A stretch of 64,000 nt of DNA, from the NCBI GenBank assembly GCA_964016885.1, contig CAXHJY010001504.1, positions 248,001 through 312,000 on the forward strand, in the 5' to 3' direction. Origin of the DNA: Eledone cirrhosa. Lineage: Eukaryota. This document shows positions 9,871-47,562 of the stretch, piece by piece (the first letter of the stretch is position 1; every line of letters starts with the position of its first letter). Under the pieces are notes generated by a model. That model was not told the origin of the DNA. It was given only the letters and a program-made list of their open reading frames with translations, and searched no databases. The translations under genes and the position numbers were made by a program.

Positions 9871-9930
9871 ATTTTGTCTGATGAAAACGCAGATATCATC
9901 TCATGATTTTTGAAATGCGCATAATAAAAT
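9871..9930 (+). ncRNA. Minimal type I hammerhead ribozyme
   Basis: Stem I ATTTTGT/ATAAAAT, CTGATGA (9878-9884), stem II AAA..TTT, GAAA (9912-9915), palindromic A-TGCGCA-T, cleavage after UA (9923). Confidence 0.75.
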
Positions 9931-10574
9931 ACTTGGAACTCTTTTAACCATCTTTTGATCTTATATTATATATATATACCAGGTAGATAGATAGATATAT
10001 ACACACATACACACATGTGTGTGTTTATATGTTAATATGCATTTATATAAGAGATATAGAGATAGATAGATAGATGGATAGATAGAAAGAAATACACACC
10101 CACACACACATGCACACTTACACACACACGCACACACACACTTACATCTTTACAATGTAGATATGTAAGGTATGATATAATATTTAAGTAAGCCATTAAC
10201 GTGTTCACTATGGGACTGAGACGCTTTCAGAAATGAAAAGTTTAACATATGATATGATATACATACTGGCCAGTACACAAGGAATATATTTTAAAATGTA
10301 GTCATCATCACCCACAAACAGTAGCCGTTACATACACGCACACACACACACACACACACACACACACACACACACATATATATATATGAAATGATTCAGG
10401 ACCCCCAACAGCTGAGCTTCGGCCGTTTCGACAGCTAAATCCGAACTTTATTAACCAAAGTATCGAGTACTCTGGTATCTTACCACACCTTCTTTGTTTT
10501 ATATATATTATATATATATATATATATATATATATATATATATATATATCCCCTTCAAGCTTTCTAATTTCTCA

Positions 10575-10615
10575 TTCTTTATTCTGATGAAGGACTAGCG
10601 TCCGAAACGTTAAGA
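10575..10615 (+). ncRNA. Minimal type I hammerhead ribozyme
   Basis: CTGATGA (10584-10590), A, stem II GGAC-tagc-GTCC, GAAACGTTA (palindrome AACGTT); stem I weak. Confidence 0.6.
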
Positions 10616-11049
10616 ACCACTTCCTGTCATTTCAAGCGTTTAAACTAATATATTCCTGCTATATACTGTACTGATTGGGTTGTGTTATTTCTGTTTTACC
10701 TTTTACATGCATATATATATATATATATTTATATATATATATATATATATATATATATATATATATATAAAGATTTTCTACCCTGCAGCTGAGCTCTTAC
10801 CACTGTCGATATGGGTAAAAAAGCCTTAGAGTAGAAATCACTATCATACCTGCCCCTCCTTATTTAAGTGTATCATGTACTAAACCGAACAATATTCTTA
10901 CTAGCCTTAACTAGTAATCCCTCTCCCCTCAATATATATATATATATATATATACGTAATGAAAATAAAGTCTAACGTCATATTGGATAATGTAGTCCTA
11001 GATACATTACGTCATACAATCAAAATGGTGGACAGGGCTGATTTATTTT

Positions 11050-11285
11050 TCAACTCTTTTGATACCAAACCGCTTAAACCATCCTTTGTTCTCCGTGACA
11101 AAACTATTTGTTTTTAAAAATGTCTATATTTATCTAAAACAAACACCCCATTATAGATTTATGTAAGGAACTTTAAGTTTATGCTGCAAACCCTAACTTA
11201 ATTATTTACAAATCCCTCGAATTTCTTGATTAAGTGAAAATTATAACAAGGCATTTCGTCAGAAATACGATAGCAAATGTGTTAA
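11050..11285. mobile_element. Degenerate piggyBac-type MITE
   Basis: Ends TCAACTCTTTTGATACC and GATAGCAAATGTGTTAA resemble decayed TTAACCCTTT TIRs. Confidence 0.3.
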
Positions 11286-12464
11286 CAAGAGATTCTTACT
11301 ACAGAAGATATAATTACTGATGCTAAAAAGAAAATGTCTGGTATAGATATGGGGAGGTGATGATCTCCGATCATTTTGTGTTCACTCAATTCCCTACTAA
11401 GAAAGACCGGCATATTTGAAAATGTAGACCTGGATTGACCATGTCTTCTGTAAGCGCAAAACGACTGGATGGTCACGACTGGATGGTCACGACTGGAACG
11501 GATTTGACCATAGGACTGCTCGGTAAGATAAACTGGAGAGAGGAGCAGCAATCATTGCCAAGAGGTTACAAACTGAAGAAAGAAAGAGGTTTCAGTCCAA
11601 CTGAATTCAGTTAATGTTTGCTCGGCAGCCATTTTATCGTCTGCAGAAAGGGGAAACACAAAAGACTAAGGAACCTATTGGTGGTGATGAAACGAAACGA
11701 AATACGTCTATTCCTCTCAAATCGATTATATTACTTAGCTGTTGTTGTTTGTGTTCCAGTTATCATCTCATCTTATCTTCAGGACACTTCTTATCCAAGA
11801 TTGTCTTTTTAAAAGGATATAGTGTGTGGTTTTTTGTATATATTTACAAATATAATGAGAGAGAGAAACAGAGGAAGAGAAAAAGAGAGAGGGGGGTTGG
11901 TTGGTTTGGGGGGGGGGGGTCGAGAAAACATAAGAAGGAGGTGGCGAGGATATGGAAAGGGGCAAAATTTACACCCTTAGCTAGACGTCGTATCTCAGAT
12001 GCACACGGCGGACAAGATGGCGAAATCTTCGCTGCAGACATCAGCTTCGCCCAAAGGTAGAGGCATATCATCTTTGACTCGATACGGCCCTTTATCCGTC
12101 TTTCAGCTTTGTATTTTCTATGATGTTTGTATTTCTCTCACATGTCTAACATCCAGCTGTTTGATGTTGGTATCAGAACCCTGTTTGATCTAAGTATTAA
12201 AGCATTTTTTCCCTCTTGTCTGTCCCTCATTTTAACCTAAGGTATTTATTTACAAATTTCTGCTCGTCACACCTACTTGATATTTGTAAGTTAGTCACCA
12301 TTTCATCTCTCCCTTGCGTTGTTTGGTATCATCCTATTTCGGAAGTATCATAGGAGTAGGATTCTGAGATATGGTTTCCCGACCGTTTTTTTCCTACCGG
12401 AAAATTGTCGCATCAAAGAAATCAGCTGACGATCGGAATTCGTTGGTATTGTTGTTATTATTAA

Positions 12465-44756: not shown

Positions 44757-45390
44757 ATAAACAAACAAGAGCTATAAGTCTACATTTCATAATTTACTTC
44801 TTCATATGAAAGAAATAAAATAAGTAAATTATGAAATGTAGACGTATGCCTTCTGTTTATAAATTTACTCCGGAGTTAATAGACCCGTTTGTGGACTTCC
44901 TTGAGTGCTCTACCCTTCTTAGTGAAGTGTTGGTATCAAACTAACACATAATCTGATTATATATATAATATATATATATATATATATATATATAATTGAA
45001 TATAAAAGAGAGATAAACACTGATATATATATATGTGTTCAAATCGTAAGAGACACTAGTTGAACACATATATGTATATATCTGTGTTTATCTCTCTTTG
45101 ATATTCAGTTATACTATACGGCCCGAAAAATATCTCTTTCCTTGAGCTATTTAATTTTAAGAGACTATTTTGAGTTTCTAATTCAATACATAACTTTGAT
45201 ATATATATATATATATATATATATATATATATATAAAGGAAGAGAATGACTTCGCTTGTAGTTCTAAACAATTTGATTTAATTTTCTATTATGAATTGGC
45301 AGATCTGGACACTAGATCCACCAACTCATGATATTATAAAATTAAATCAAATTGTTTAGAACTACAAGTGAAGTCATTCTTTTCCTTTTT
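44757..45390. repeat. Three adjacent fold-back islands separated by (TA)n
   Basis: Inverted arms at about 44757-44860 (tail ACTC..GAGTGCT to 44960), 45003-45100 (tail to 45200, shared with 26565-26620) and 45235-45390. Confidence 0.7.
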
Positions 45391-46594
45391 TTAAATAAAT
45401 ATATATATATATGTACACACACACATACACAAATATATGTCTATAAGGGAACAACACGCAGATACATAGATATACAGTTATGCACACACGCACACACAGT
45501 CACACACTCACAGACACACACATTCACACACGTACTGATATACATATATATAACTTCCAGTTTTATAAGAATGAATCATAAATGCTCATATTGAAACCTG
45601 TGCAAGTATTAATACTTTTCAGTTTCTCGTATGTTGTATGGTGGAAGGAATGAAATATGACCTTAGCAAAAATTTTGAATCTAGAAATCGTAATAGTTGA
45701 GCCTTTAATCCGGAAATCATTGATTTCAAAAGTAGCCTCTACTTTGGCGATCACTCTTTTAGAAATAGCAGCTAAGCATCCGCATTATACTCGTTAAAAT
45801 TTTTGTTTTGGTGAGCGGGCTTAAGGTACATTAGATAATTTCATCCACGTTTACATTATCGCATTTTTTTTCTGAAGAAAGCAGAGGGTAAAGACAGGAT
45901 GAAACACTGCAGGAGCATCTTTGATCGTTGGCCTGCTGGATCAGGAATGACCTAGGGGTTAAACCACAATATTCTATTTCATATAGTGTGAGAGAGACAA
46001 GTAAATAAATAAACTAATAAAAAGGGCGGTTGAAAGATGTACTAAATAAAAATAAAGCAAATCAAATATAAAATATACATGGTGCGGTTGTTGTTGATTT
46101 TGTTGTTGTTTAGCCCCAGGTCAACCCTGATTAAACAGGCCATATGATCAAAGGAAATTCAGTGTTGACCCTCATGTCGTTTTAATCCCAAATATTGTGT
46201 CTATCTATGACTCGTACGTTCTTTATTTAATGAATCCTTCCGGTATAATTTCTTGGAGATTAGTCACCTATTATTTCTAGCAGTCCGGAGAAACCACGTT
46301 GATTTGTTTTCTTGTTGTTTGTTTCCAAGCCTGTTTACTCTAAACGAAAGGTTCTTAAACTTTAAGGTTCAACCGCCCTCATGGCCATGTAATACATTCA
46401 GTGACCCCAACCTTATTTCCAGAGAGACCTGCCTACACTCAAATTGTAAATAATATATAATAAATAGAATCGTTAATTTATATATAATAAATAATATAAT
46501 ATATACTATGTATAAATAAATAATATATATTTTTTATTTTACTATATTTATATATAATATGTATCATTTGATGTTTAATATATTATTATATCAT

Positions 46595-46690
46595 CTCTAC
46601 CGCACCACCACCTCCTTGGGCCCCAGCGCCGCCTGTACCTTCTCAGCGCCCCCGGGGGGTGGTAGCGCCCACATTGAGAGCCAGTGCTCT
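46595..46690. mobile_element. hAT-like MITE terminus
   Basis: GC-rich subterminal stretch ending TTGAGAGCCAGTG, similar to the reverse complement of CAGTGGTTCTCAA hAT TIRs. Confidence 0.35.
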
Positions 46691-47496
46691 AAATGAACAA
46701 ATATAGACGTTATAACAATATCAGTAACGTTATATTAGCCATCACGTGAAGTATATCCTTCTCGTTGTTGTTTCAGTGACAGGTTAGGCCTAATTCAGTA
46801 GGTTTGAGTAGGTCTATTATGACTAAAGACAATCCAAACCTGGCCATCTCCATAGTTATTATGACTAAGGTTAATGAACAAACAGAATGGCAGTAGTATC
46901 GGGTATGATATGTAATGAGGTTGTGTGCGTATAAAGTGTGTGTGCAAAGAATCGCATGTAAATGTAAAAAATTACTTTTATGTGTATATATATATATATA
47001 TATATATATATATATATATATACTCACACACGCACACATATACACGCACACATATACATGAATATAAATAAATATATGTAAATAAAACTAAACAGAAATA
47101 ACTAAAAAACGACACAGTACATGGAAGAAATATATTAGTTTAACGCTTGCAATAACAGGAAGAGAGACTTAACGTTTAAATATATATCTATATCTATATA
47201 CACATATATATATATGTAAATATATATATATATATATATATATATATATATATATATATATATATATATATTCACATACAAGTATAATTTACATGCACCC
47301 ATATATATGTATAATATATATATATACATATATATATATATATATATATATATATATATACAGAGGTTATATTTATATATATTTATATATATATTTATAT
47401 ATTATATATATATAATACTATCCAGGAAACTCCAACCGTTAAGGTTGTCTTTTTTCAGGGTATGTCAATATTTATTTATAAAACTAATCTGTATTG

Positions 47497-47562
47497 TATT
47501 TTATCTGATGAAAGCGCACCATAATTTGCCTTGTTGGCCCTTGAAATATGTATAATAAAATA
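47497..47562 (+). ncRNA. Minimal type I hammerhead ribozyme (same family as 27232)
   Basis: TATTTTAT-CTGATGA (47505-47511)-AAG..CTT-GAAA-TATGTA-TA-ATAAAATA. Confidence 0.8.

Follow-up and report, generated by a model that had tools for sequence, protein, structure and literature searches.

A 64,000-nucleotide stretch of the Eledone cirrhosa genome (the window: assembly GCA_964016885.1, contig CAXHJY010001504.1, positions 248,001 to 312,000 of the forward strand) carries short, likely Penelope-like repeat end-pieces inserted in (TA)n that bear type I minimal hammerhead ribozyme motifs. Stem III of these motifs is made by a short word that follows GAA, and the self-complementarity of these words is real and lies far beyond chance. 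A first-pass annotation had suggested that the words, as loop 3, may act as a dimerisation code by which each family would pair only with itself. We find that a self-complementary stem III is unlikely to be a family-specific code. Instead, the letters of the word are likely to drift freely under a requirement for rough self-complementarity, such that families usually differ and sometimes coincide, and families are predicted by pair modelling to be mutually exclusive through stem I and stem III together, as a by-product of ordinary divergence without selection. G+C makes up 27% of the window and simple repeats about half of it, and the family labels F1 to F17 were assigned in the present analysis. 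The single motifs that supply the words are listed here, and those within head-to-head insertions (fold-backs) are listed further below.

9870–9931, plus strand: F1 type I hammerhead with an 8-bp stem I, CTGATGA core, word ATGCGCAT at 9915–9922 and predicted cleavage after 9923.
10576–10619, plus strand: F10 classical minimal hammerhead with an extra A after the core, G10.1-C11.1, the loop-less word ACGT at 10607–10610 and, in this copy, a stem I of only 2 contiguous pairs.
18869–18939, plus strand: F1 hammerhead motif of this abundant family, word ATGCGCAT at 18923–18930.
27733–27826, plus strand: F4 hammerhead motif, word ACGGCCGT at 27810–27817, 3 contiguous stem I pairs.
28176–28187, plus strand: GAA-ACATATGT-A in a weak F4 relative, a putative ribozyme only, with no CUGANGA core in this copy.
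29712–29771, minus strand: F2b hammerhead, word at 29721–29728 as in F2, stem I with compensatory changes.
30054–30098, minus strand: F11 candidate hammerhead, TTGAAAA core (possible U3-A8 variant), word ACCGGT at 30062–30067; a weak, single-copy candidate with only 3 stem I pairs.
40211–40250, within the fold-back at 39981–40360: F8 hammerhead motif, 6-bp stem I, core CTGAGA (no N7), word AGTACT at 40238–40243.
47497–47562, plus strand: F2 hammerhead copy, word ATATGTAT (a G-U variant) at 47546–47553.

Palindromy was assessed with a descriptor that required the hammerhead core, a stem II of at least 2 and a stem I of at least 4, and that made no demand on palindromy. It returned 8 matches in the window, comprising 6 perfect palindromes of at least 6 nt, 1 G-U variant and 1 that is probably chance, whereas 150 simulated runs of the same composition as the window gave 0.69 matches per run, 1% with a palindrome of at least 6 nt. 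A looser F1/F2-clade pattern, applied to viral contigs as a control set that yields chance-like matches only, produced no palindrome among 35 distinct matches, and the stricter form of the pattern gave 0 matches in metagenomes. Palindromy is imperfect in F6, F9 and an F5 subfamily. The odd, centre-mismatched word ACAGT occurs on five F6 arms (6497, 13180 and, on the minus strand, 6447, 13129 and 53229), and ACGGT, likewise odd and mismatched at its centre, occurs in F9 at 40519 on the minus strand.

Much of the first-pass word list is exact: GAA is followed by ATGCGCAT at 9915 and 18923, by ACAATTGT at 16596, 18716 and 42281 (and additionally on minus arms at 16540 and 18550), and by ACGGCCGT at 27810. 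Other entries needed amendment. The word ACATATGT is present at 28179 in the core-less copy listed above; 27232 and 29712 do belong to ribozymes with the word ATATATAT but are the ends of minus-strand ribozymes, whose words lie at 27241–27248 and 29721–29728; and the copy at 47554 reads ATATGTAT rather than ATATATAT. ACCGGT is correct as a word and lies on the minus strand beside a non-canonical core, and AACGTT at 10606 takes in core nucleotide A14, leaving ACGT without a loop 3 as the word after GAA. The list had overlooked ACAGT (F6), ACGGT (F9), AGTACT at 40238 (F8) and a family with a 5-bp stem III (21446).

The core CUGANGA ... GAAA ... UH is present in type I order in F1, F2, F2b, F3, F4, F5 and F10, with variant cores in F8 and F11. 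Stem I comprises 8 bp in F1, F2 and F2b, 6 in F8, 5 in F3, 3 in F4, F5 and F11, 2 in F10, and 0 pairs in the F6 copy at 13180. An extra nucleotide after position 9 together with a G10.1-C11.1 pair is clear in F10 only, and the base of stem II is U.U in F3, F6 and F8 and A-U in F1 and F2. Core, stem I and palindromy fit the predicted class of dimer-type minimal hammerheads, as had been proposed. The first and last letters of the word (A15.1 and U16.1) are fixed by the hammerhead core. N7 is variable within F1 among sequencing reads, where an A>G plus T>C pair is also present, unphased. In sequencing run X1, loop 2 of F1 varies and no change at a G, C or T of the word reaches 3%, an invariance that is not significant alone given about 11 listed variant places in about 150.

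F7 departs most from this plan. Its stem III (21446–21464) is a hairpin of 5 bp whose 9-nt loop contains GAGCTC, resembling a kissing loop in geometry, and every copy lacks the 5′ half of the hammerhead core. The hairpin also occurs at 2409, 42909 and 63675, with a variant at 26104–26117. N7 is missing from the F8 core on both arms of its fold-back, where the differences between arms are homopolymer-length indels that may be assembly errors. A second F10 copy (47090–47177, minus strand) is 5′-truncated exactly at its AACGTT palindrome.

The claim that palindromy is kept while letters change holds for the related F1 and F2, which carry ATGCGCAT and ATATATAT on the same 8-bp stem I. The claim of a different word in each family does not: F3 (16596, 42281) and F5 (18716) are unrelated beyond the GAA-ACAATTGT core, yet have that word in common. 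Fixing A and T leaves 64 possible 8-mers, from which 5–6 families would all differ 79–85% of the time and collide 15–21% of the time, and distinct words and one collision therefore both fit drift. Imperfect words can also be amplified, as in an F5 subfamily that reads ACAAATGT in 2 contigs of run X1 (summed depth 2913, which is not a copy number), in one X4 contig that has the linked changes as well, and at the starts of 38 reads in X19. In modelled duplexes this form pairs better with ACAATTGT (−7.3) than with itself (−5.5). In X19, a restriction-site-associated DNA (RAD) run, a G>T change at 18925 and the ends of reads at 18721 and 18922 coincide with AATT sites and were set aside as probable products of restriction-site selection, and shares from this run were therefore not counted as frequencies.

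A metagenome scan in which the word was left open points the same way. It gave at least 122 loci and 123 matches; among those listed, 72 of 123 are well formed, and 60 of these 72 are palindromic compared with 3 of 19 that are poorly formed, the other 32 falling in neither class and being left out of the analysis. The well-formed matches among those listed make up 25 groups defined by their flanks, 23 of them palindromic with only 6 different palindromic words (ACGT in 12 groups, ACATGT in 5), and in all five listed assemblies with two such groups both groups use the same word. An own palindrome for each lineage, the expectation under partner selection, was thus found neither in these assemblies nor in F3 and F5.

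In a double hammerhead each core would borrow the stem I 3′ strand and U16.1-H17 of its partner. The stem I strand comes from the partner as well because the type I topology pairs A15.1 with the U16.1 of the partner strand; since stem I is also swapped, productive pairing would need stem I and stem III together. We modelled all 45 pairs of 10 hammerhead motifs on this basis. Stem I is compatible both ways in a single pair, F1/F2, whose words are discordant (modelled stem III +0.9 versus −15.3 and −8.0 on a common clamp). Two of the 45 pairs have the same word, and in both stem I is broken in at least one direction: F3/F5 form 0 and 0 cross stem I pairs in the two directions and F2/F2b form 1 and 8, with stem I covariation between F2 and F2b. 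A fully paired heterodimer is predicted for 0 of the 45. The proposal that families pair only with their own kind is therefore borne out, as a prediction, in every modelled pair, through stem I plus stem III and not through loop 3 alone.

Preservation of palindromy with changing letters is already published. Penelope-type minimal hammerheads have a palindromic stem III and fold as dimers (Cervera and De la Peña 2014, PMC4209133). A review repeats this description, citing Lünse et al. on dimer cleavage (PMC6765202), and dimerisation improves the cleavage of axolotl retrozyme motifs that have either a palindromic tetraloop or U.U at the stem II base (PMC7229834). Like the metazoan pseudo-long-terminal-repeat (pLTR) hammerheads of PMC4209133, the window motifs have a type I core, a palindromic loop 3 of 0–4 nt, many families per genome, predicted dimer folding, a U3-A8 variant, mostly solo truncated copies, and pairs on opposite strands 100–700 bp apart. 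Unlike them, several window families have 8-nt words, a long loop 2 and A-U or U.U replacing G10.1-C11.1, and no open reading frame (ORF) is attached in the window; the supplementary alignments of PMC4209133 may list such families.

The fold-backs, which lie on both strands, are as follows.

1299–1545: F2c fold-back, outside the range covered by the first-pass annotation; word ATATATAT on each of two identical arms, tail on the right arm.
6342–6540: F6 fold-back; single F6 arms also lie at 1887 and 53153.
13020–13226: F6 fold-back, odd word ACAGT on each arm.
16494–16705: F3 fold-back in (TA)n, CTGAGGA cores, word ACAATTGT at 16596–16603 (plus) and 16533–16540 (minus), right arm with a 67-nt tail.
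18484–18782: F5 fold-back, long stem II, word ACAATTGT at 18716–18723 (plus) and 18543–18550 (minus).
21356–21562: F7 fold-back, GAA, 5-bp stem III and 9-nt loop with GAGCTC, then GTC; other F7 copies at 2409, 26113, 42909 and 63563.
27182–27540: F2 fold-back, complete hammerhead on the minus arm (27232–27296, word ATATATAT at 27241–27248); plus arm 5′-truncated, word at 27392–27399, with tail.
39981–40360: F8 fold-back, hammerhead motif at 40211–40250.
40452–40790: F9 fold-back, odd word ACGGT at 40515–40519 (minus), 5′ half of the core absent.
42222–42390: another F3 fold-back, its left arm short and internally deleted, its right arm bearing word ACAATTGT at 42281–42288 and a tail.
20404–20633, 45237–45386, 49049–49135, 49374–49469 and 61968–62228: (TA)n-inserted fold-backs in which our scans recognised no hammerhead core.

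The anatomy of these insertions makes a Penelope origin of the end-pieces likely. An inverted 5′-truncated copy, a one-sided tail and a microsatellite target, the marks of insertion by endonuclease-positive (EN+) Penelope-like elements, occur together. In 13 of 17 fold-backs the tail is one-sided, one arm ending no more than 9 nt from (TA)4 with 66–177 nt on the other side, and tails are homologous between copies of F2/F2c, F3, F6 and F7. Inverted copies with a one-sided tail and a bias for microsatellites are described for Penelope elements in PMC8557442, and the same inverted anatomy is described there for Naiad/Chlamys elements without canonical hammerheads. The window resembles the EN+ insertions of PMC8557442, PMC3846280 and PMC11167929 in its head-to-head 5′-truncated copies with a tail on one arm, its (TA)n target and its junction palindromes, and differs in its arms of about 60–200 nt and lack of an ORF. 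Head-to-tail hammerhead units, the arrangement of retrozymes, were found neither in a self-comparison of the window nor by library mapping. Animal non-LTR retrozymes (PMC7229834; bioRxiv 10.64898/2026.07.22.740005) are likewise type I hammerhead repeats without coding capacity, presumed to come from Penelope pLTRs, but form head-to-tail arrays where the window has solo or head-to-head copies.

A motif of the form ACTC...GAGT(R)Y, just past the end of the tail-less arm, marks the tail start in families whose stem III words differ, namely F2, F3, F6, F7, F9 and F12 (16647–16666, 27457–27476, 1466–1485, 21493–21514, 44867–44906, 40710–40748 and, on the minus strand, 6389, 13069 and 53164). Folding of its RNA form (ACUC...GAGU) predicts a hairpin in F2, F3, F9 and F12 and none in F6 and F7, and the motif is a candidate for a shared protein-binding or reverse transcriptase (RT) start signal. 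In F3, F6 and F7, separate insertions place the end of the tail-less arm at almost the same point, which is specific to the family. Several fold-back centres (in 6411–6533, 13092–13214, 16497–16639, 18484–18782 and 42222–42326) lie about 10 nt or less 5′ of the CUGA core, which suggests that the 5′ edge of the hammerhead is where the copied RNA starts or where reverse transcription halts; the copies retain an uncleaved motif.

The purified Penelope protein PAc, a predicted dimer, cleaves both strands and extends them, starting at two sites between which the tail lies (PMC11167929). Catalytically dead hammerheads leave Penelope insertion in vitro unaffected (PMC11167929), and the role of the hammerhead and the origin of inverted insertions are stated to be open in PMC8557442 and PMC11167929. 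We consider it quite probable that the end-pieces carry Penelope-type dimer hammerheads with drifting words and arose by standard inverted insertions. Self-complementary stem III would let two copies fold as a double hammerhead, working like those of newt satellite and viroid RNAs (PMC6155905), and head-to-head insertions would come from the element's protein priming both target strands from two start sites, or from self-priming. An RNA dimer would be permitted but superfluous for fold-backs; a need for it in head-to-head insertions sits poorly with the 5 of 17 fold-backs that lack a visible hammerhead and with the Naiad/Chlamys elements (PMC8557442). These five could belong to hammerhead-less or decayed families, or carry another ribozyme.

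Several points weigh against parts of this explanation. No remnant of a Penelope RT or GIY-YIG domain was found in 17, then 59, window frames, in pieces too short to hold one, and the one-sided extension of 66–177 nt to the microsatellite exceeds the 30–40 bp published for Penelope tails. An Rfam scan (E ≤ 1) included no hammerhead family among the 150 of 604 matches listed, which are driven by microsatellites and hairpins, nearly all to microRNA models and all under the gathering score; nor were any of 8 single-copy folds better than shuffles (z −1.1 to +0.9). The 5-bp stem III of F7 could fold as a monomer, yet the loop palindrome is retained. Because the pattern used on metagenomes holds the core and stem II base constant, groups sharing a word may be related lineages, and one assembly may contain several hosts. 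The PAc mutants removed catalysis and not dimerisation, and are compatible with a dimer role. Both arms belong to the same family in 17 of 17 inverted pairs, as had been proposed for fold-backs genome-wide, a result for the window that follows by construction from their detection as inverted repeats. Mapping a library of family pieces to the window also gave no directly joined mixed-family pair, and the occurrence of the tail-start motif across families hints at a shared or related enzyme, yet there is no mixed fold-back. Similarity between arms could result from gene conversion after insertion.

Within the Penelope reading, fold-backs may alternatively arise from one template by snap-back, the first complementary DNA (cDNA) or an antisense RNA priming itself at a short hairpin near the 5′ edge of the hammerhead. 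Palindromic stem III would then serve only cis cleavage of tandem transcripts, and the two accounts differ only in the route to fold-backs. We regard this as a serious though less favoured possibility. Several fold-back centres are short perfect hairpins (F2c, 75-bp arm and 6-nt loop; F3a, 70 and 9; F6a, 58 and 7; F13, 49 and 0), and the arms of one insertion share private variants: F2 arms differ at 2/89 and 0/67 within an insertion versus 7–15 between insertions, and F6 arms at 1/60 and 6/58 versus 3–11, mostly sharing their private variants, with F3 and F7 arms too uniform to tell. PMC3846280, which reports the same anatomy of a tail and an inverted copy, reads junction palindromes as Penelope self-priming, and PMC6155905 describes dimers as two tandem copies in one RNA. 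The recurrent tail-less arm end in F3, F6 and F7 fits a second RNA start site better than a random stop.

A selected form of self-recognition is much less credible. Selection would keep stem III, with stem I, distinct among co-active families so that every RNA pairs within its own family, in the manner of retroviral dimerisation-initiation palindromes, and the dimer would be what is loaded for the two-strand priming that gives same-family fold-backs. The absence of a fully compatible heterodimer, the changed word between related F1 and F2 and changed stem I between F2 and F2b, the same-family arms of all fold-backs (albeit found as inverted repeats), the tail hairpin common to several families, the predicted PAc dimer and the 6-nt palindrome in the 9-nt F7 loop are all consistent with it. 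The word common to F3 and F5, the words shared in five of five two-group assemblies among the matches listed, the amplified imperfect words, the drift expectation of all-distinct words and the fold-backs or elements lacking a hammerhead argue against it. In its strongest form, which we judge slightly more doubtful still, stems I and III would be a selected lock that loads two same-family RNAs on a dimeric Penelope protein for opposite-strand priming from the tail and tail-less sites, making the element pseudo-diploid like retroviruses. To our knowledge, Penelope elements have neither a known particle nor a known step of co-packaging. In the HIV-1 (human immunodeficiency virus 1) dimerisation initiation signal a short palindrome pairs two RNAs, as the proposed code would, and discordant palindromes (GCGCGC versus GUGCAC) reduce heterodimer co-packaging 2.3-fold (PMC3605237); unlike that signal, the window palindrome belongs to a catalytic core, and stem I is swapped too. 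Finally, it is highly improbable that the words arose as artefacts of chance or of microsatellites and that the motifs are not hammerheads: ATATATAT is ubiquitous in the window, single-copy folds do not surpass shuffles and the sites at 28179 and 30067 are weak, but the palindromic share of descriptor matches, the absence of palindromes from the chance matches in viral contigs, stems I of 5–8 bp with compensatory change and N7 varying within F1 all stand against this.

Candidates at 286 (minus), 11262 (minus), 45872, 49169 and 60087 were put aside as probable chance, and the divergent F10/F2 pair at 47090–47605 was rejected as one fold-back, 223 nt of AT-rich repeat between its members indicating two insertions. 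Contigs from the sequencing runs contained no strand-changing joints and are too short to inform on fold-backs. Elsewhere in the window, 32581–33718 and 36557–36980 form the 3′ end of a non-LTR retroelement, two inverted pieces 95–96% identical and each in (ATGT)n; a weak zf-RVT match at 33152–33718 (E 0.006) is the sole relevant protein-domain match in the frames scanned. A repeat of about 180 nt, like a short interspersed nuclear element (SINE), accounts for 31 BLAST pieces, with sites that include 732–917, 3453–4260, 5919–6100, 19918–20169, 29477–29661 and 51046–52478 and an inverted pair at 52056–52357.

The window thus adds examples of a described motif in which the loop alone is no family label. 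It also supplies natural control pairs: F1/F2, with the same stem I and different words; F3/F5, with the same word and different stems I; and F2/F2b, with the same word and a stem I compatible one way. The literature searched, which mostly excludes subscription journals, yielded no work on Penelope hammerhead dimers of mixed families. A self-recognition lock, if true, would explain the lack of mixed fold-backs among families that share a tail hairpin, and if RNA pairing chose the two templates, Penelope hammerheads would gain a non-catalytic job.

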